Source of the DNA: a virus
Taxonomy: Duplodnaviria; Caudoviricetes
DNA: 64,000 bases
Virus record (IMG/VR): IMGVR_UViG_3300007151_000001
Coordinates: 32,352-96,351 of that record
Direction: 5' to 3' (one strand)
The translations under genes and the position numbers were made by a program. The notes under the pieces were generated by a model that saw nothing but the letters and a program-made list of their open reading frames with translations, did not search any database and had not been told where the DNA came from. Positions 11,040 to 58,827 of the stretch are shown here, piece by piece (the stretch's first letter is position 1; each line of letters starts with the position of its first letter).

Positions 11040-11111
11040 TAGCCCCGACGGGAATCGAACCCGCTAGAACCGCGTCTAAAGCACGGCGTGTATCCATTGC
11101 ACCTCGGGGCC
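11040..11111 (-). tRNA. tRNA with UUA anticodon (putative ochre suppressor)
   Basis: Full cloverleaf: GGCCCCG/CGGGGCT, D-loop AATGGAT, anticodon arm CCGTG-CT-TTA-GA-CGCGG, T-arm GCGGG-TTCGATT-CCCGT; 72 nt. Confidence 0.75.
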
Positions 11112-48539: not shown

Positions 48540-48843
48540 TGTATTGGATATGGCCGCTTTGGACCTGGCTGGACAACCTCGGCGCCGGGTTCGGTTTCGA
48601 TCCGCTGTTCTTCCAGCTGATGCCGGTCTTGGTGTATATTCTCTGGGAGCGGGTCTGGTTTCACTGGCCGGAGCACCGCCTATAAATCGACCTTACCTTT
48701 TGATCAGGGCGTCCTAGGCGTCCTGGCGGCGGCCTCGGATCACCGGGGCCGCTGTCGCGTCTGTGTTATACTGTGGCATCCACAAAAAAGGCGACGAGTC
48801 CGTGAGATGACCCGCCGCCGCACAGACACGAAAGAAGGGTTCC

Positions 48844-50199
48844 GTGCCTGCCGCCTCCAGTATAGTTGAAGACACCAAGCCTCGCACTTTACGCTTGCGC
48901 TTGTTGCCGGGCACCCGTGCCAACGGCGAATACTTGGCGGGCTTGGCTGGGGCCAATCGCGCCGTCTGGAACCACTTCGTAGCCCTGAACCAAGAACGGT
49001 CTCGTCATCACCGCAACTGGCGGGATTACCGTATCGGCCCAGAACCAGCCCCGCCGCAATACCGTCGCTATTCCATGCAAAAAGAATTCACGCAGTTGCG
49101 GCGGGAATGGCCTTGGTTGCAGAAATACAGCAGCGACGAAGTCCGATATTGCCTGAAGTATCTGGAAGACACATACAAAGCCCATTTCAAGGACCCGGAA
49201 GAAAAGGGGTGGCCGAAATTTAAAGCCAAACATTTTGCGACGCCTGCCTTCACGGTTTCTCAAGGCAAGATCCAATCTGGGTGTCTGTGGATCCCCAAAT
49301 GCGGTTGGATGCGCCTGCAAGGGGAGCGGCTGTATGCCGGCTGTCAGGTCAAGACCGTGCGGGTACGGCAAGAAGGCTCGCCCCAGAGGCCCAAGTGGTA
49401 CGCCTATGTCTGCTATGACGTTCCTGTGTCCCAACTTCGTCAGGGAGCGCAGACAGGCATCGTGGGGGTCGACCGCGGCGTTACCGATGCCCTGATGGAC
49501 AGCTGCGGCGAGGCGTATCGGATGCCGGACGTATCCCGCCTGGAAGCCAAGAAGAGACGCTACGAACGCATCAAGTCACGGCGGCGCAAAGGGTCGGCGC
49601 GCCGAAGACGTATCGTAGGTCGTCTGGCCAAGATCCATCGCAAGATACGGCGGATCCGGGATACGGCCACGCACCTACACAGTCGCCAGTTGGCGGACAA
49701 GGCGCATACCATCGTCTTCGAATATCTGAAAATCAAGCAGATGACGAAATCTGCGAAAGGCACGCAAGCCGATCCCGGCCAGAACGTCAAAGCCAAGGCC
49801 GGCCTCAATCGTGAAATTCTGGCCGCCGGATGGGGCGGGACGGTTGCCAAGACGTCGTACAAGGCGGGGCGGGTCTTGCAAGTCCCGGCTGCCTATACCA
49901 GTCAAACCTGCAGCCGTTGCGGCTGCGTAGCGAAGGAGAGTCGCCAGGGGAAACGATTTCGGTGTATCGATTGTGACTTCATGGCAGACGCCGATCAGAA
50001 TGCGTCTGTCAACATCGAGCGATTGGGAAGAGAACAATTGATCGCTCAGGGCATTCCTAGGGATGCTGTTTGGCCCATGTCGCGGGGGCCGCTGCCCAGG
50101 GAGAGGCGTTCTCGTCAGAGACCTCGACGATCTGCGGAACCAGTTGTTCAACCAGACCAACCGACCAACCTTGTCCAGCGGTCGTTATGGTTTGGCTGA
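48844..50199 (+). CDS. tnpB: CRISPR-associated TnpB-like RuvC nuclease 1 (451 aa; nascent type V)
   Basis: RuvC-I VGVDRG, RuvC-II VFEYL..KQMTKSAKG, Zn-finger SQTCSRCG...CIDC, RuvC-III ADQNASVNI; the array starts after a single base following the stop. Confidence 0.9.
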   Translation: MPAASSIVEDTKPRTLRLRLLPGTRANGEYLAGLAGANRAVWNHFVALNQERSRHHRNWRDYRIGPEPAPPQYRRYSMQKEFTQLRREWPWLQKYSSDEVRYCLKYLEDTYKAHFKDPEEKGWPKFKAKHFATPAFTVSQGKIQSGCLWIPKCGWMRLQGERLYAGCQVKTVRVRQEGSPQRPKWYAYVCYDVPVSQLRQGAQTGIVGVDRGVTDALMDSCGEAYRMPDVSRLEAKKRRYERIKSRRRKGSARRRRIVGRLAKIHRKIRRIRDTATHLHSRQLADKAHTIVFEYLKIKQMTKSAKGTQADPGQNVKAKAGLNREILAAGWGGTVAKTSYKAGRVLQVPAAYTSQTCSRCGCVAKESRQGKRFRCIDCDFMADADQNASVNIERLGREQLIAQGIPRDAVWPMSRGPLPRERRSRQRPRRSAEPVVQPDQPTNLVQRSLWFG

Positions 50200-50200
50200 A
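50078..50200 (+). ncRNA. omegaRNA/tracr-like scaffold overlapping the 3' end of nuclease 1
   Basis: GGGGCCGCTGCC...GAGG-CGT-TCTC-GTCA-GAGA-CCTC...GGAAC nested hairpin resembling TnpB 3'-end RNAs; GTCGC at 50079-50083 is complementary to the repeat end GCGAC. Confidence 0.6.
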
Positions 50201-50433
50201 CCCTCAACTCGCGCACGCGCACGAGGGCGACCGTTGCGAATACGTAATCGTCGGGCGCCGTGTAATCGCCCCTCAACTCGCGCACGCGCACGAGGGCGAC
50301 CATTTCCCCCATGATGATGTCGAGCTCGTGCGGCCCCTCAACTCGCGCACGCGCACGAGGGCGACCTGCAGATCCAGCCACTTAGACATCATGCCCGCAT
50401 CCCCTCAACTCGCGCACGCGCACGAGGGCGACC
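50201..50433 (+). CRISPR. CRISPR array 1: 4 repeats, 3 spacers
   Basis: Identical 32-nt CCCTCAACTCGCGCACGCGCACGAGGGCGACC at 50201, 50270, 50335 and 50402; unique spacers of 37, 33 and 35 nt (one less each if the preceding C belongs to the repeat). Confidence 0.95.
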
Positions 50434-53506: not shown

Positions 53507-54088
53507 ATGGCGACTTATCCCCCCGATCATGAAGGGAACGCCTACCTCGCCGCGCACGGCGAACCCGGCGGGCCGGATTGGGACGTCTCTTGGGCGTCGG
53601 CGCCCTTACGGAAACCGGCCCCTCGGAACGACATCTTCCTCTGGCTGCATCGACAGTCTTTCTTGCTGGGATTGACCCTCGACGCCGCGGACATGCGCTA
53701 TCCCTTGGACATCGTCTGGGCTTTCGTACCGACCGCCGGCAAGGGGTTTGCGCCTGTGGTGTATCTGCGGAATGCGCCGCTGTATCCGGCGATAGAGGCG
53801 TCCCTGCCCCGCCCGAACTTCATACCGGCGCAGTTGAGTTGGCGATTGCACGACCATATCGACCTCGAGAAGTTTCGGGCCGACCTGGTACATCCCTACG
53901 AACTCGAGATCCTCGAAGACACGATGTGCGCCACACTGTACGGGGAACCGGCGGCGTACCCCAACCCCTGGCATGAATGGCCGTTTGCCGAGCGCAAGGC
54001 CAAGGCCGTGGAACGGGTCACGGCGCGCTTCGAGGCGGCGCGGGCCACGGCACAGGCCCAACCCAAGGCACAAGCCCAACTCGTCTGA
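53507..54088 (+). CDS. Hypothetical protein
   Basis: ACACAGGAG RBS; TATAAT at 53401. Confidence 0.65.
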   Translation: MATYPPDHEGNAYLAAHGEPGGPDWDVSWASAPLRKPAPRNDIFLWLHRQSFLLGLTLDAADMRYPLDIVWAFVPTAGKGFAPVVYLRNAPLYPAIEASLPRPNFIPAQLSWRLHDHIDLEKFRADLVHPYELEILEDTMCATLYGEPAAYPNPWHEWPFAERKAKAVERVTARFEAARATAQAQPKAQAQLV

Positions 54089-54343
54089 AAAACTGCATTT
54101 CCTAGGCGCGGCATTGAAGCCCTGTGTTACGATTTCCCCGCATTATCCAAAACAGGGGAGACGGCAGAAAGTAAGGTGGGGCCGCCGGCGCTCTCGGACC
54201 GAATTTCCGCCGGCGGCTCTTTTGTGTTAAAGACAGGCCAGGGCCCGCGGCATTGCGTTGCGTCGAATGCCGGGCCCTTCCCTTGTCTTCAGCACTGTGA
54301 TACAATCCATACAGGAGAGTAGCAGAACACACAGGAGACGGCA

Positions 54344-56044
54344 ATGGCGGTGGGAGCACTAGCGACAGACCTAGGACATCTTCCCCTTTTCGACTATGCC
54401 CGTAGGCAAGCGGCGGGGCAGTCCAGTATGCCGCGGGTATCGCCTGTCTACAGGCCGGTGCGCTACAGGATTTACCCGATGACTTCCGATAATGCCCGGT
54501 ACTGGGAAGAAATCGACGCGGCCCGCTGCGCCGTGCGCAACCGGTGTCGGGCTTTGCGCAAGGCTAGAGCGCGCCTGTATGCGGCTTGTAGCCAACCCGC
54601 GGACGAACAGACCGAATTGCTGCAAGACGCGGAGTTTACCCGCAAGCTGGCCTTCCTGCGTCAGCACTTGGAATTGCTTTGCGCTAGCGCGTCGGGCCGA
54701 AAATACGCAGAACAGCTGCTCGCAGTCCTGAACTGGTTTGAGGGGCACCGTACCGCTCCGGTCCCGCGCATGCCAAGCAACAAGAGACTGGACTCGTGGG
54801 TAGCGTTGTGTGCAGACTTCACAGTGTTTTACGACTGCATAATGCCGTGGCTGAAGCAGTACCCTTATGGTGCGGTGCGGTCGGTGCTGAAAGACATGGC
54901 TACCACCTACAAGAACGCATACGACGACTCCCAGCCCAATGCGCGGTTGCCGAAGTATCACGATCCCGCTGAAGATGGGAAACGGCACAAGGGCTTTACT
55001 TTGCTTGACGGTGCGAAGGTCGAAGACGGGTGGGTGTATGTCCCGGGAACCCGAGACCAGAAAGGGACCTGGCATCTATTTCGCCGGCGCGGGGACAACA
55101 AATTCGAATCGTATCCTATCGGTCCTGTGCGGGTCTGGCAGGAACGGCAACGTGGGCGCAGGCGTGCGCGGTGGTTCATTACGCTGTGGTATAAAGTGCC
55201 GTGCAACGTGCTGTACGCGGATGTCGCAGATACCGGGCTAAGGGGGTTGGATCGAAATTCCGCGGAGGGAGAGACTGCGGCTCCTTATGTAGACAGTACG
55301 GGACATGTCTGGAGTGTGCCGAATACCGAGCGCTTGGAGGAACGAAAGAAGCGCCTGCAACGCAAAGCGGCTAAACAAGAGGGCAAGAACCGCAAGACCA
55401 AGGCCGCGGGGTCACGGAATTGGCATAAGACGCAGGCAAAGATACGTTGCATCGACGCCAAGATTGCCGCGGTTTGGCATCACGCCCTGCAAGAAATGAC
55501 TACGGAGATGAAACGCAACGCTCGGTATTGGGGGATCGAAAATCTGAACTTGCTCGGGATGACTACTTCCGGGAAGGGCAGCGTGGAAGAGCCAGGGAAG
55601 AACGTCAAAGCGATTGCCGCCAAGAACCGGGGGATGAGAGCCGCCCGGTTGGGGAAAGCGCAAGACATGCTGGAATACAAGTTGCCTGCGGGGCACTTGA
55701 TCGGCGTGCATGCCGCCTATACCAGTCAGCAATGTAGCGATTGCGGGTATACGGACAAAAAGAACCGGCTGTCGCGGGCCGTCTTCCGCTGTGGAAGTTG
55801 CGGATTGGAACTGCATGCGGATTGGAATGCTGCGCGGAATATTGCGCAGCGCGCCCTGGAGCAGTTGAAGGCGGGGGACGTATCTGCCGATGATCCGCGA
55901 CATAAGGAAATAGCCAAATTGGCGGTGGCTTTACTGGAGCCGTCGATGTTGGAGGCGCGTGTCACGGCGTCTTTAGGTGGGGATGGTGTCGTGCAATCCA
56001 ACTCCGGTTGGGCAGACACCGGTGAAGCACTGAACCAAGTTTGA
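54344..56044 (+). CDS. CRISPR-associated TnpB/Cas12f-like RuvC nuclease 2 (566 aa) with expanded N-terminal REC region
   Basis: RuvC-I RGLDRN, RuvC-II WGIENL...GMT.SGKGS, Zn-finger SQQCSDCG...CGSCG, RuvC-III ADWNAARNI; phage-type ACACAGGAG RBS and TGTGATACAAT promoter. Confidence 0.9.
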   Translation: MAVGALATDLGHLPLFDYARRQAAGQSSMPRVSPVYRPVRYRIYPMTSDNARYWEEIDAARCAVRNRCRALRKARARLYAACSQPADEQTELLQDAEFTRKLAFLRQHLELLCASASGRKYAEQLLAVLNWFEGHRTAPVPRMPSNKRLDSWVALCADFTVFYDCIMPWLKQYPYGAVRSVLKDMATTYKNAYDDSQPNARLPKYHDPAEDGKRHKGFTLLDGAKVEDGWVYVPGTRDQKGTWHLFRRRGDNKFESYPIGPVRVWQERQRGRRRARWFITLWYKVPCNVLYADVADTGLRGLDRNSAEGETAAPYVDSTGHVWSVPNTERLEERKKRLQRKAAKQEGKNRKTKAAGSRNWHKTQAKIRCIDAKIAAVWHHALQEMTTEMKRNARYWGIENLNLLGMTTSGKGSVEEPGKNVKAIAAKNRGMRAARLGKAQDMLEYKLPAGHLIGVHAAYTSQQCSDCGYTDKKNRLSRAVFRCGSCGLELHADWNAARNIAQRALEQLKAGDVSADDPRHKEIAKLAVALLEPSMLEARVTASLGGDGVVQSNSGWADTGEALNQV

Positions 56045-56066
56045 ATCTCATTCCCAGAAATTGTGA
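55954..56066 (+). ncRNA. tracrRNA-like scaffold with terminal anti-repeat
   Basis: Hairpin GGTGTC...CCAAC-TCCG-GTTGG...GACACC (55985-56020); GTCAC at 55961-55965 complements the repeat end; 56044-56066 AATCTCATTCCCAGAAATTGTGA pairs with the repeat core; duplicated at 16193-16277. Confidence 0.75.
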
Positions 56067-56089
56067 AAAGTGGTTTTTGTGAGTCAAGG

Positions 56090-56630
56090 GTCACAATCAT
56101 AATTTCGATTGGGAAGTGATTGTGACCCCCAGCGCCTTCGCATTGTCTACGATGGTATCGTCACAATCATAATTTCGATTGGGAAGTGATTGTGACCAAT
56201 GCGGAAGTTGAAGACATGCCCCGTCTCGAAGTCACAATCATAATTTCGATTGGGAAGTGATTGTGACCCCCCACAGGTTGAGGAATGCGCGGGCGAGCCG
56301 TTGTCACAATCATAATTTCGATTGGGAAGTGATTGTGACCCCAGGGGTTGCACCAGATGCCCGGCCCCCGCGAGTCACAATCATAATTTCGATTGGGAAG
56401 TGATTGTGACCTGTAGTGATCGTCGTAGGTACTAGGACACACGGGGTGTCACAATCATAATTTCGATTGGGAAGTGATTGTGACCCTTCGTCTTCCACAG
56501 CGCCGTCGCGGCAGGCGTCATGTCACAATCATAATTTCGATTGGGAAGTGATTGTGACCATGCCGTGAGTAGCAGACGCTCATGTGGGTATCGTCACAAT
56601 CATAATTTCGATTGGGAAGTGATTGTGACC
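56090..56630 (+). CRISPR. CRISPR array 2: 8 repeats, 7 spacers
   Basis: Identical 38-nt GTCACAATCATAATTTCGATTGGGAAGTGATTGTGACC at 56090, 56160, 56231, 56303, 56374, 56448, 56522 and 56593; spacers of 32, 33, 34, 33, 36, 36 and 33 nt. Confidence 0.98.
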
Positions 56631-56737
56631 CCCGGTGGTGGTATCTTTGTGTCCTGGGGTATACTTTCCCTGCTGGGGCATTGGTCTAGGCAGCAGTCGG
56701 TGCCTCAGCATTTCATCCCTCCCAGAGACCCAACCCC

Positions 56738-57355
56738 ATGAGCATCTTCAGCGGCATAGAAAAGGACATCAAGAAGGGCATTAGCAAGCTCGGCGACAGC
56801 GTCAAGCACGAAGTCCAGATCCTGGGCAAGGAAGCCAAGCATGAAGTCGAGAAACTGGCGGTCGAAGCCCAGCATGAGTTGAGCAAGGCCGCGGACAATG
56901 CGGAAATGGAAGTGACGCACCTGGCGAAGCAGGCGGCGCAGGACGTAGAGCATGCGGCGAAAGAGGCCAAAGCAGGTCTCGAGGAAGGGTTCCATGCGGC
57001 GATGGCGGAAGCGTTGAAAGCCGTGTCCCGCGGGGCGTTGCATAAGGCCCTGACCGTCGCCAAGACGTTGACCCCAGACCAAATGGGGTTGTCGTTGGGG
57101 CCGGTGAGTATGGCGGTCGAAGACGTGGACCAGCGGATCGACGTCCTGGAGAAATGGACGCACAACCCGCCGACGGATACGCATCACATCAAGGAATTGA
57201 TCCGCGAGATTGCGCCTACGAGCGTCTCGGTGCAGATTGATGTCCAAGTGGCCGCGCTGATCGTGACCACGGACGATCTGAGCATCGGGTTCAGCGCCAC
57301 ATGGACGACGGAGGGGTTCCTGCAGTCGTTCGACGACATCATGGCGGCATTCTGA
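56738..57355 (+). CDS. Hypothetical protein with 11-mer amphipathic repeats
   Basis: KHEV..L..EA periodicity in the N-terminal half. Confidence 0.7.
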   Translation: MSIFSGIEKDIKKGISKLGDSVKHEVQILGKEAKHEVEKLAVEAQHELSKAADNAEMEVTHLAKQAAQDVEHAAKEAKAGLEEGFHAAMAEALKAVSRGALHKALTVAKTLTPDQMGLSLGPVSMAVEDVDQRIDVLEKWTHNPPTDTHHIKELIREIAPTSVSVQIDVQVAALIVTTDDLSIGFSATWTTEGFLQSFDDIMAAF

Positions 57356-57360
57356 GGTAG

Positions 57361-58827
57361 ATGCGGGGGGAACACCGCGTTCGGCTGATCCGTCTGTCGT
57401 TTGCCGACGGTGCACGCTGGTACGGGCGGGTCTATCGCGCCTATCGACTGCGCAGTTGCCTGAACCGGATCCAAGAGCAAGCCCCGGCGATAGCCGAGCG
57501 CATGGCGGCAGGCGCGATCGTCTGTCTGGAGCAGCTGGCCTGTACGACGGCGGCCCCGGCGACGGCTCTGTACTACCGCTATCTGTACTACGACCGGCGG
57601 CCCGGGCTACTCAACATCCAGCGCAATTTCGCGGAGCGGGCTGACGCCCCAGAGGTCTACTGTTCGCAGTGTGCCGCGTGGAAGCCGCGCTCTGCGTTTC
57701 GGAAGACGAAACGCAAGCGAAACGGGTTGAGCAGTCTATGTAGGGACTGTCATCAGCGCAAGTACTATCATGCGCAACCGTTGCGGCGCCGTCCCTGCTG
57801 GCGGTGCGGCAAAGAGTTCCCGGCCAAGGCAAAGAGTCCCCGGAAGTACTGCAGTGCCGAATGCCGTCGTCTGGGAGGCGCTCTGACCCGCACTGTGCAG
57901 TGTGGGGAATGCGGGGCGTCTTTCGAGACGGCGCTGCCTCGGAAATACTGTAGTCATGCCTGTGCGACGGTCGTCCAACGTCGCGCCGAACGCACATCCA
58001 AGGCGAAGAAGCGCGGGCCTCGCCCGCCGGTACGACAGTGTTTGCAGTGTGGTTCCGAGTTTGCGCCCAAGTCCAGGCGTAACGTGTACTGTTCGCAGGA
58101 CTGCTATCAGATTGTCAATCGGCAACGCTCGGCAGAGCGCAACCGGCGCAGATATGCCGCCCGGCCAGAGCGGGCTTGCCCGACATGCGGAACCGAGTTT
58201 GCGCCCTTCGGGAGGCGAGCGTACTGTTCGGAGGAATGTCGGCGGTTGGCGTTGCCGAAGGCCCCCTGCGCATTGGGTCGGGAAAAGCCGTGCTTACGAT
58301 GCGGAACGAGTTTTCTTGCCAGGACCAACCAGCGTTGGTGTTCGTCAGGTTGTCGGGAACAAGCGTTGGCGGAACGGAAGCCGCCGGCGCCTACCTACAC
58401 GTGTGCGGAATGCCAGGCGGAGTTCAAGGCCCGGCGCAAGCGGGAATGCTGTTCGCCCGCGTGCACCAAGCGTCACGTGGCCCGGCGGCGGGCCTTGGAG
58501 TACCAACGGCGGCGGGAACAATTCGCGGGGCGTCTGTGGTTGCGCCAACTAGGGCGCTGCGGTCTCGTAGGCTCCGTGAAGGGTTGTGGTTGCCAGTTGG
58601 ACAAGTACGATTTCCACATCGATCACGTCGTGCCGCGGAGTCGGGGAGGGCTGGACACGCCCGACAATCTGCAACTGCTGTGCCCCGACTGCAACCGGAA
58701 TGCGTCTTGGCTGATGGAGTCGGAACTGGCGGAGCGAGGATGGCAATACGGCTTAGCCAATCCCCCCGCACGGGGCAAGGCGGGGTTGTATACTCAGAGG
58801 GCCACGGAACGGACACAACGGGCGTGA
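57361..58827 (+). CDS. HNH endonuclease with multiple Zn-finger repeats
   Basis: Six CxxC.xxF...CSxxC units and C-terminal HIDHVVPRSRGG....NLQLLCPDCN. Confidence 0.8.
   Translation: MRGEHRVRLIRLSFADGARWYGRVYRAYRLRSCLNRIQEQAPAIAERMAAGAIVCLEQLACTTAAPATALYYRYLYYDRRPGLLNIQRNFAERADAPEVYCSQCAAWKPRSAFRKTKRKRNGLSSLCRDCHQRKYYHAQPLRRRPCWRCGKEFPAKAKSPRKYCSAECRRLGGALTRTVQCGECGASFETALPRKYCSHACATVVQRRAERTSKAKKRGPRPPVRQCLQCGSEFAPKSRRNVYCSQDCYQIVNRQRSAERNRRRYAARPERACPTCGTEFAPFGRRAYCSEECRRLALPKAPCALGREKPCLRCGTSFLARTNQRWCSSGCREQALAERKPPAPTYTCAECQAEFKARRKRECCSPACTKRHVARRRALEYQRRREQFAGRLWLRQLGRCGLVGSVKGCGCQLDKYDFHIDHVVPRSRGGLDTPDNLQLLCPDCNRNASWLMESELAERGWQYGLANPPARGKAGLYTQRATERTQRA

Follow-up and report, generated by a model that had tools for sequence, protein, structure and literature searches.

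The window analyzed here, i.e. the whole 64-kb stretch of DNA, is part of a complete tailed-phage genome of 96,351 nt, which has a terminal repeat of 99 nt (its record bears the labels direct terminal repeats and 100% complete) and gives matches for head, tail, primase, helicase, Erf and endolysin functions. Another 96-kb viral contig was considered as a related phage and rejected, as it proved not to be related. A gene for a 566-aa TnpB-fold nuclease (named P0001; system A) lies on the + strand at positions 54344..56044, starts with ATG, and is supported by its ORF, domain matches, alignments and an AF2 model. A ribosome-binding site, AGGAG, can be read from the sequence at 54333..54337 (+ strand), 6 nt before the ATG, and the same CACAGGAG-type context also precedes other genes of the phage. 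Upstream of it, a motif scan detected a putative extended -10-like promoter motif, TGTGATACAAT (54296..54306, + strand). The pattern TGNTAYAMT occurs three times in the 64 kb, always upstream of genes; a longer promoter pattern was built from the two sites that it matches, so its statistic is circular. No sigma-70 site was found near 54296 by a two-hexamer scan. An earlier reading of this DNA, made from the letters alone (the sequence-only reading), had proposed a phage-type RBS and promoter; the RBS stands, and the promoter is reduced to an extended -10-like motif.

The nuclease gene is followed on the same strand by CRISPR array A (56090..56630), in which repeat analysis revealed eight repeats, GTCACAATCATAATTTCGATTGGGAAGTGATTGTGAC(C), and seven unique spacers. 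All eight repeats are identical over 37 nt and a C always comes next (37/38-nt repeats). They start at 56090, 56160, 56231, 56303, 56374, 56448, 56522 and 56593, and the spacers, measured after the 37-nt repeat, are 33-37 nt each. The distance from the stop codon to the first repeat is 45 nt, so both the eight-repeat array and its 45-nt spacing from the gene agree with the sequence-only reading. There is no + strand terminator-like site in 53900-56900 and hence none between the nuclease gene and the array. Searches of the whole 96,351-nt genome produced no match for Cas1, Cas2, Y1 TnpA or serine recombinase, which extends to the complete phage an earlier statement that no transposase or cas1/cas2 lies nearby. 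The locus thus has the composition by which type V systems are recognized, namely a single RuvC effector of TnpB descent adjoining a co-oriented CRISPR array.

No relative of the whole locus was found in the collections searched, and exact 24-mers of repeat A had no match in other arrays of viral and metagenome contigs. Spacer targets were found neither in the window and the whole phage genome nor in the phage collection, plasmids and five Caldilineaceae genomes; in addition, exact 22-mers of three of the seven A spacers had no match in viral contigs. A 22-nt spacer match present in all five Caldilineaceae genomes was rejected as a target and is attributed to chance because it lies within a conserved single-copy gene. 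Rfam yielded nothing for the locus beyond one match to a miRNA family, which overlaps a repeat and scores below the threshold.

Domains, fold and relatives of the nuclease

P0001 contains a WED strand (residues 35-45), REC helices (48-193) with an insertion at 81-116/124-139, the remaining WED part (216-285), and a RuvC domain from residue 299. The RuvC triad is intact (D303, E399 and D493), and the zinc ribbon is of the CCCC type (C464/C467/C483/C486). Alignments of 7, 27 and 150 relatives, in which these residues were index-checked, place all of them in invariant or nearly invariant columns, confirming the D-E-D RuvC and zinc finger noticed before. P0001 matches the Pfam family Cas12f1-like_TNB (E 6e-17) and scores 109.9 bits against NCBIfam NF040570 (guided_TnpB; residues 168-503), above the cut-off of 100 for this TnpB family. 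Compared with six aligned relatives, it has extra residues at 3-25, in REC (81-116 and 124-139) and in a C-terminal tail. The sequence-only reading had explained the size of the protein by an N-terminal helical insertion; the insertion is real, but because the extra length is spread over residues 3-25, REC and the tail, it accounts for a part only.

The AF2 model of P0001 (pLDDT 82.7, pTM 0.77) shows disorder in the C-terminal tail 533-566 (pLDDT <50); a single-sequence AF2 model was discarded (pLDDT 38.8). The nearest solved structure is ISDra2 TnpB (PDB 8H1J, 8EXA), with Z 23.2, an rmsd of 2.6 Å and 347 of 362 residues aligned; Cas12p 9jfs matches at Z 16.2 and LaTranC at Z 15.1. No solved Cas12 structure is as close to the modelled fold as TnpB. 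Domain order is also the same as in ISDra2 TnpB, from which P0001 differs in having about 160 extra residues and neither a transposase partner nor a second copy. Moreover, in contrast to the ISDra2 element, system A has an eight-repeat CRISPR array in place of the single guide and no detectable omegaRNA of the type found in its relatives. The marks of a transposon (OMEGA) TnpB, namely an IS200/IS605 or IS607 element, a TnpA partner or multiple copies, and one omegaRNA guide at its right end, are absent from P0001. Nor does it reach the thresholds of curated Cas12f models: NCBIfam Cas12f2 gave 65 bits (cut-off 450) and c2c8 37.8 bits (cut-off 350), and the PADLOC Cas12f models match its C-terminal half only.

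With respect to relatives, P0001 is an orphan, its best match among 1.84 billion representatives being 39% identical. The closest kin of P0001 are TnpBs present in several copies in MAGs of Chloroflexota and Rhodothermales, not of Actinomycetota, and none of the 80 nearest genomic relatives has a CRISPR array beside it. Two array-like regions, of 72-nt and 63-nt tandem repeats, were rejected as CRISPR and are probably coding. In a phylogenetic tree built without reference sequences of the Cas12n, Cas12f and TranC clades, P0001 sits within a clade of TnpBs on a very long branch, of 2.12 changes per column, and is sister neither to the companion protein described below nor to three array-linked viral proteins. 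An independent origin of system A from TnpB is plausible, and system A probably represents a new lineage within an already described class.

Anti-repeat and candidate guide RNAs of system A

The leader between the gene and array A contains an anti-repeat (56044..56073, + strand) complementary to repeat positions 2-32, as indicated by cofolding, cis folding and local alignment. Its first position coincides with the third base of the stop codon of the P0001 gene. RNAcofold of 56040-56075 with repeat A gave helices of 4, 6 and 10 bp plus 5 further pairs, with an energy of -23.4 kcal/mol; the gain over the separately folded RNAs (6.4) is reached by 0.17% of 3000 random 36-nt segments of the genome. 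When 56036-56127 was folded in cis, the leader folded onto repeat 1 with -27.9 kcal/mol (z -3.42), and none of 200 shuffles was as good. The local alignment of the anti-repeat to the reverse-complemented repeat has a score of 24, and scores of at least 24 were obtained at only three distinct places when both strands of the 96-kb genome were examined with the array excluded (12,760 segments). In terms of raw duplex energy, the anti-repeat falls outside the top 12 of 38,293 segments and GC-rich segments elsewhere are stronger; such a scan is uninformative for an AT-rich anti-repeat because GC-rich segments dominate it. Pairing of 56044-56066 with the repeat had been described before, and all three of its helices were recovered, beyond chance. 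The complementarity is therefore statistically real. The same kind of scan on a relative (L037), chosen as a positive control, showed no + strand anti-repeat.

A tracrRNA body for system A could lie within 55856..56043 (+ strand), the coding region of residues 505-566 of P0001; this candidate position is suggested by the low pLDDT of the tail and by analogy with Cas12n. The in-gene scaffold claimed by the sequence-only reading did not gain support: the 3' 220 nt of the P0001 gene have no excess RNA structure relative to shuffles (z -1.0), and a covariance model of the omegaRNAs of relatives gave no match to system A (0.5 bits, E 0.48, filters off). A possible pseudoknot between GUCAC (55961-55965) and GUGAC at the 3' end of repeat A was dropped, as a 5-mer within 250 nt is near chance.

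On its own, repeat A folds into a hairpin whose outer stem has 11 pairs (-16.3 kcal/mol, z -4.47; none of 200 shuffles was as good). This stable hairpin is a competitor of the anti-repeat duplex and would fit a crRNA of the tracr-free kind. The nuclease might accordingly bind the hairpin of each repeat, as in tracr-free type V systems, with the inverted partial repeat in the leader being a relic or serving repeat 1 only. Besides the hairpin itself, this possibility draws on the lack of a detected structured or conserved scaffold upstream of the anti-repeat and on a phage Cas12m locus that is reported to have no recognisable tracrRNA (bioRxiv 2026.09.14.751636). It conflicts with the fold of P0001, which is TnpB-sized except for the REC insertion of about 50 residues; a long scaffold RNA is used by each of the solved enzymes nearest to it in the structure search (TnpB, Cas12f, Cas12p and Cas12n), and the anti-repeat lies where expected, with complementarity beyond chance. 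We consider crRNAs that work without a tracrRNA unlikely in system A.

A companion system in the same phage

The sequence-only reading missed another TnpB-like gene, which likewise has an array of its own (48844-50433) and lies 4.1 kb upstream of the P0001 gene. This gene (48844..50199, + strand, GTG start; system B) encodes a 451-aa TnpB-like nuclease that shares 31% identity with P0001 and 48-49% with TnpBs present in multiple copies in Caldilineaceae MAGs. Inside and just past its 3' end, an omegaRNA-like scaffold (50064..50215, + strand) was detected by the covariance model, which had been built from the tails of 43 relatives and included no sequence of the window; this hit (41.5 bits, E 9e-8) is the only significant one in the window. 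Array B (50201..50433, + strand) begins 2 nt after the stop codon and consists of four repeats, CCCTCAACTCGCGCACGCGCACGAGGGCGAC(C), and three spacers. According to our reading of the alignments, GCGAC at the 3' end of repeat B is complementary to GUCGC, which aligns with GGGAC of the relatives, and this GGGAC is in turn the complement of GUCCC at the 3' end of their omegaRNAs. Exact 24-mers of repeat B had no match in viral contigs and one in metagenomes, a chance match to a coding sequence with no TnpB nearby. Two short stretches of repeat A, of 11 and 9 nt, recur in the 3' end of gene B at chance level (E 0.33 and 5.2).

These two genes, which are diverged from each other, are the only TnpB-like genes of the phage genome, and both of its arrays, each with a different repeat, start on the same strand right after them (2 and 45 nt from the stop codons). 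This arrangement bears on the question of whether array A is used by P0001 at all. Viruses are known to carry mini-arrays that depend on host systems, and array A could be one of these, served by the Cas machinery of the host, or could represent decaying or non-defence repeats beside a TnpB-like gene, given that no spacer target and no adaptation genes were found. We regard such an unused array as very improbable: it would leave unexplained the position of both arrays directly 3' of both genes, the anti-repeat in leader A, the omegaRNA-like scaffold running into array B, the absence of exact repeat 24-mers from other arrays of the viral and metagenome collections (none for A, one chance coding match for B), and the retention of all catalytic residues by P0001.

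Comparison with known systems

Among the described systems, Cas12n (V-N, formerly V-U4) is presented as an early TnpB-to-Cas12 intermediate whose tracrRNA overlaps the ORF and whose C-terminal tail is unstructured, with 5'-AAN as the PAM and a monomeric mode of action; PDB 9J09 is RdCas12n (PMC12216341). P0001 shares with Cas12n the miniature size, REC expansion, CCCC zinc ribbon and disordered C-terminal tail, and locus A likewise has a downstream array and no adaptation genes. Furthermore, RdCas12n 9j09 is the best PDB sequence match of P0001 (E 1.2e-16, 63.5 bits), and Cas12u4 is its best PADLOC model (126.7 bits, residues 319-520 only). P0001 could then be a divergent V-N member with the same RNA layout, which would alter its classification and leave the mechanism proposed below as it is. 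However, this likeness is common to the whole TnpB branch and weakest in P0001: RdCas12n gave 87.8 bits for protein B and 85.2, 113 and 138 bits for three other proteins (P0022, P0103 and that of L037), so that 63.5 is the lowest of the five, and 126.7 bits is the lowest of seven proteins tested with the Cas12u4 model. The REC lobe reaches only Z 11.7 against 9j09, versus a whole-protein Z of 23.2 for ISDra2 TnpB, and the nearest relatives are not from Actinomycetota. P0001 also differs from Cas12n in its REC insertion without homologue, its phage-borne state and an anti-repeat just outside the ORF. Membership in V-N appears quite unlikely to us, and P0001 shows no particular closeness to Cas12n, Cas12f or Cas12p.

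The name TranC (transposon-CRISPR intermediates) reportedly goes back to Jin et al. in Cell in 2025, and its numbered clades are marked by a dual use of CRISPR RNA and reRNA. TranC systems are described as TnpB-like proteins with short CRISPR arrays that arose many times by a split of the omegaRNA into tracrRNA and crRNA, with no adaptation genes and with 3-20 repeats of 32-38 bp; one of them, CauTranC9, is on a Caudoviricetes genome and has ~414 aa and no REC or WED expansion (bioRxiv 2026.03.27.714800, PMC13565253). P0001 differs from CauTranC9 in its 566 aa, REC insertion and disordered tail, and the TranC idea is better matched by system B, with its 451 aa and intact omegaRNA-like scaffold, than by system A. 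Cas12p ('Cas12 hacker') is introduced as a phage-encoded early intermediate of 500-700 aa with tracrRNA and crRNA, a pseudoknot to the 3' end of the repeat, a thioredoxin-binding insert in REC, a PAM-interacting (PI) domain located between WED and RuvC, a disordered C-terminal domain and the triad D378/E478/D582 (bioRxiv 2025.01.20.633832). P0001 is similar in being phage-encoded, in its size range and in its disordered C-terminus; unlike in Cas12p, the last WED strand (276-285) of the P0001 model appears to lead to the first RuvC strand (299-304) with no two-helix PI domain between them. Finally, the 40 V-U* branches (V-U6 to V-U45; Altae-Tran et al. 2023) are characterized as CRISPR-linked TnpB offshoots with a downstream array, mostly without other cas genes, and many come from metagenomes only (PMC10691335). 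Locus A resembles them in its downstream array and in its lack of adaptation genes.

The sequence-only reading thus overstated the novelty of the locus: a tracrRNA overlapping the ORF together with an unstructured tail is the layout described for Cas12n (PMC12216341), and repeated TnpB-to-Cas12 transitions, some of them phage-borne, are in print (PMC10691335; bioRxiv 2025.01.20.633832; bioRxiv 2026.03.27.714800). The route from a transposon nuclease to a CRISPR enzyme is already well described, and locus A is one more example of it. Since repeated transitions, in-ORF tracrRNA and phage carriage have all been published, its value is that of a good new example, not of a new concept.

Proposed mechanism and origin

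Locus A is real and probably functional. Its core description as a phage-borne compact type V system derived from TnpB holds, in the form of an adaptation-less TnpB-derived nuclease with its own array. The explanation that we favor, and consider fairly probable, is that of a miniature type V-like CRISPR locus encoded by the phage, without adaptation genes and with a divergent nuclease of TnpB fold as its effector. According to this explanation, the P0001 gene, leader and array A would be co-transcribed from a putative promoter near 54296, and an RNA ending at the leader anti-repeat 56044-56073 would act as tracrRNA. It would pair with repeat positions 2-32, leaving the last 6 nt (GUGACC) free beside the spacer, as is the case for other TnpB-like guide RNAs. 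The duplex of anti-repeat and repeat might be cleaved either by RNase III of the host or by the nuclease, and the resulting complex would cleave DNA matching the 33-37-nt spacers beside a PAM. Likely targets would be either competitors within the same host, namely rival phages or other mobile elements (superinfection exclusion), or genes of the host itself. In cis, the leader, repeat 1 and spacer 1 would form a natural single-guide-like hairpin.

The two systems may further represent two stages of the passage from TnpB to CRISPR in one phage, a tentative reading that we rather doubt than accept. System B would be the earliest stage, with 48-49% identity to active multicopy copies, an omegaRNA scaffold within the gene, a four-unit array for the single guide, and a pseudoknot arm co-varied with the repeat. 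System A would be a later one, being fast-evolving, with a REC insertion, a scaffold no longer recognizable and a leader anti-repeat forming a hairpin with repeat 1. If this two-stage reading is true, system A would count as a new lineage of type V, born on phages, and phages would be a birthplace of CRISPR arrays from omegaRNAs. The paired loci offer a concrete, testable case of the conversion of an omegaRNA into a tracrRNA and a crRNA array: system B ties a CRISPR array to a scaffold still recognizable as the omegaRNA of living transposons, and system A presents the hairpin of anti-repeat and repeat in cis, presumably its ancestral form. If active, P0001 would also be a further compact (566-aa) RNA-guided nuclease without close relatives, with possible use in genome editing.

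As for its origin, the effector of system A may have come from the branch of TnpBs found in multiple copies in Caldilineaceae, Rhodothermales and similar MAGs, and would then have gained the REC insertion and diverged fast. The nearest kin of P0001 are TnpBs from sponge- or coral-type MAG lineages.

Two nuclease-array loci in one phage genome

The window makes up the final 64 kb of one 96,351-nt contig, which carries a terminal direct repeat of 99 nt; the source record lists it as a virus with direct terminal repeats, at 100% completeness. PHROGs matches include head morphogenesis, minor tail, primase, helicase, Erf, endolysin or peptidase, methyltransferase and HNH proteins. Cas1, Cas2, Y1 TnpA and serine recombinase are absent from the whole genome; the sequence-only reading had noted no transposase or cas1/cas2 near the nuclease P0001 of system A.

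The P0001 gene (54344-56044, +; 566 aa) carries AGGAG 6 nt upstream of its ATG, in agreement with the ribosome-binding site named in the sequence-only reading. The position given there for array A is exact: repeat 1 begins 45 nt past the P0001 stop, and the array consists of 8 repeats (identical over 37 nt, with a constant C after each) and 7 spacers, all unique, of 33-37 nt. No terminator-like site was found on the + strand between gene A and array A. That reading overlooked a second TnpB-like nuclease, encoded by companion system B (gene and array, 48762-50433, +). Protein B (48844-50199, +; 451 aa) matches the guided_TnpB model with 194.8 bits and shares 31% identity with P0001 over about 390 residues, and its array (4 repeats of 31/32 nt, 3 spacers) starts 2 nt past the stop. 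In total, the genome contains two TnpB-like genes and two arrays. Each array follows its own TnpB-like gene on the same strand, and nothing argues more strongly for assigning the arrays to the nucleases. An extended -10-like motif is located upstream of both genes; a longer -10-like pattern was derived from the same two sites, which makes its statistic circular. No targets of A or B spacers were found in the window, the whole genome, a phage collection, plasmids or five Caldilineaceae genomes, and exact 22-mers of three of the seven A spacers had no match in viral contigs. Elsewhere, ARAGORN reported a tRNA with anticodon TTA (11040-11111, -), a putative ochre suppressor, and two genes past array A lies a 488-aa protein (57361-58827, +) that has numerous zinc-ribbon-like CxxC repeats and, at its C-terminus, an HNH endonuclease domain (phrog_1271, E 2e-37).

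An anti-repeat in the leader of array A

When 56040-56075 was folded in trans with one copy of repeat A, energy minimisation recovered the three leader-repeat helices proposed from the sequence, together with five extra pairs (-23.4 kcal/mol). The gain over both RNAs folded separately was 6.4 kcal/mol, a size found in 0.17% of 3000 random 36-nt genome windows. Some evidence counts against use of the anti-repeat in system A, as repeat A folds by itself into a stable hairpin (-16.3 kcal/mol, z -4.5), and in raw duplex energy GC-rich windows elsewhere beat the AT-rich anti-repeat. In the cis fold of 56036-56127, this hairpin is displaced and the leader pairs with repeat 1 (-27.9 kcal/mol, z -3.42, equalled by 0 of 200 shuffles). 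By local alignment, the leader anti-repeat scores 24 against reverse-complemented repeat A; with the array left out, scores of at least 24 occur at only three places in the genome (both strands, 96 kb, 12,760 windows), and the chance expectation for such a site in a 45-nt leader on the correct strand is about 0.001. The sole site with a better score (26 versus 24) lies outside the window, at about 6.24-6.30 kb of the genome (+). Locus A is real and probably functional, as a type V-like system that is borne by a phage, derives from TnpB and includes an anti-repeat of the tracrRNA type.

OmegaRNA scaffolds

In the relatives of B, conservation of the tail ends abruptly with ...ATATAA(G/T)TCCCA, which we take as the omegaRNA end because the copies diverge past that point. 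A covariance model based on the tails of 43 relatives, with both window sequences excluded, gave a single significant match in the 64 kb, namely an omegaRNA-like scaffold of B at 50064-50215 (+; 41.5 bits, E 9e-8), homologous to the one in multicopy transposon TnpBs. Around array A (55700-56250, filters off), the best match reached 0.5 bits (E 0.48), and the 220 nt upstream of the array show no more structure than their shuffled versions (z -1.0). An in-gene scaffold is thus demonstrated for B; for A, to which the sequence-only reading had assigned one, it is possible but gains no support. Leader positions 56046-56057 of array A read TCTCATTCCCA, resembling the omegaRNA 3' end of the relatives, TATAATTCCCA; the cmsearch alignment of the two is not significant (0.5 bits, E 0.48). 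The multicopy TnpB elements L081-L160 (e.g. L092:3426-3586) have a strongly conserved omegaRNA common to the Caldilineaceae, Rhodothermales, Thermodesulfobacteriota and Dadabacteria MAGs, with the core CUGCACGG..GAGG...GA.CCGUGAA and the sharp 3' end AUAUAA(G/U)UCCCA.

The B scaffold segment GUCGC aligns with GGGAC of the relatives; repeat B ends 3' in GCGAC and the relatives' scaffold in GUCCC. GGGAC/GUCCC and GUCGC/GCGAC are both perfectly complementary, and by our reading of the alignments three of the five pairing positions are changed on both sides. This suggests a candidate, possibly co-varying pseudoknot between the B scaffold and the repeat 3' end, resembling the scaffold-repeat pseudoknots described for Cas12n and Cas12p; the chance level of the complementarity, possible offsets allowed, is roughly 0.01-0.03.

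The nuclease of system A

By NCBIfam, P0001 is a generic guided_TnpB (109.9 bits; cut-off 100) and falls far below the cut-off of every subtype-specific Cas12 model (e.g. Cas12f2, 65 vs 450). Pfam detected a Cas12f1-like TNB zinc ribbon (E 6e-17) and, slightly below the cut-off, OrfB_IS605. The proposed RuvC D-E-D triad and Zn-finger were borne out by index-checked alignments of 7, 27 and 150 relatives, in which D303, E399 and D493 as well as C464, C467, C483 and C486 show little or no variation. P0001 is a singleton whose closest neighbor among 5.8 billion clustered proteins has 35% identity over 63% of its length. Against 1.84 billion representatives, 7443 matches were obtained at E <= 0.001 (39% identity for the best match), and among the best 150 of them the best-scoring stretch never begins before residue 118.

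The AlphaFold model (150-row alignment; pLDDT 82.7, pTM 0.77) comprises a WED strand (35-45), a helical REC region (48-193), WED (216-285), RuvC (from 299) and a disordered tail (533-566). An N-terminal helical insertion had been proposed to account for the size of P0001; compared with six relatives, extra REC residues are indeed present (81-116 and 124-139), but the additional length also lies in residues 3-25 and parts of the tail. VIA-align placed ISDra2 TnpB closest among solved structures (Z 23.2, rmsd 2.6 A, 347/362 residues aligned), followed by ISFba1 TnpB (20.0), Fanzor2 (17.7), Cas12f enzymes (about 16-17), Cas12p (16.2), LaTranC (15.1) and the RdCas12n REC lobe (11.7). Foldseek E-values for the same model were bunched, with none of these structures preferred.

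Relatives and origin

In an unrooted ML tree (63 rows, quick search, without named Cas12 references), P0001 stands at the end of a very long branch, of 2.12 changes per column, within a 38-row clade (SH-aLRT 95), without a starred sister. Protein B belongs to an 8-row clade with the related proteins P0002 and P0103 (support 99); neither B nor any of the array-linked viral proteins at loci L037, L070 and L014 is the sister of P0001. Relatives from genomic sequences are TnpBs with multiple copies, carried by MAGs named Caldilineaceae, Rhodothermales, Thermodesulfobacteriota and Dadabacteria, and none of their 80 loci has a CRISPR array; therefore, the closest kin of P0001 and B are ordinary transposon nucleases. 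Two repeat regions at genomic loci were rejected as CRISPR, being 72-nt and 63-nt tandem repeats that are probably coding.

Locus A represents a divergent lineage within a kind of system that is already well described. Altae-Tran et al. 2023 (PMC10691335) report that a further 40 TnpB branches linked to CRISPR have arrays downstream and that most of them lack adaptation genes, and they propose that arrays arise by duplication of omegaRNA segments or by insertion next to an array already present. Other reports describe Cas12n as having an unstructured tail and an ORF that the tracrRNA overlaps (PMC12216341; bioRxiv 2026.03.27.714800), TranC as transposon-CRISPR intermediates with many origins via omegaRNA splitting (PMC13565253), phage-encoded, tracrRNA-using Cas12p of 500-700 aa (bioRxiv 2025.01.20.633832) and CauTranC9 in a Caudoviricetes genome (bioRxiv 2026.03.27.714800). 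Also on record is a Cas12m from a phage, with an array of 8 spacers; it is a protein different from P0001 (610 aa; D305, E463, D555; bioRxiv 2026.09.14.751636). The independent origin of system A from TnpB, proposed in the sequence-only reading, is no more than plausible.

The top PDB sequence match of P0001 is 9j09, which is RdCas12n (PMC12216341), and its top PADLOC model is Cas12u4. Scores against RdCas12n and Cas12u4 are 63.5 and 126.7 bits for P0001 (the latter over residues 319-520 only), 87.8 and 179.4 for protein B, and, for related proteins, 85.2 and 177.6 (P0022) and 113 and 191.7 (P0103); P0104 and P0111 score 196.9 and 144.5 against Cas12u4. By these scores, likeness to Cas12n is a property of the whole TnpB branch, and it is weakest in P0001 among the proteins scored.

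An array directly downstream of the gene occurs in three of 80 viral loci with relatives. At L014:2149-4058 and L070:2230-4017, TnpB-like genes (447 and 436 aa) precede arrays whose period is 61 nt (7 and 4-5 repeats, later ones degenerate) and which may be the nucleases' own or neighboring arrays of another type. The third lies on a viral contig (L037:2320-4276). Its protein of 536 aa has a long C-terminal tail and matches both Cas12u4 (294.3 bits) and RdCas12n (138 bits) over the full length; 3 repeats follow, the first 178 nt past the stop, and the locus is probably phage-borne and Cas12n-like.
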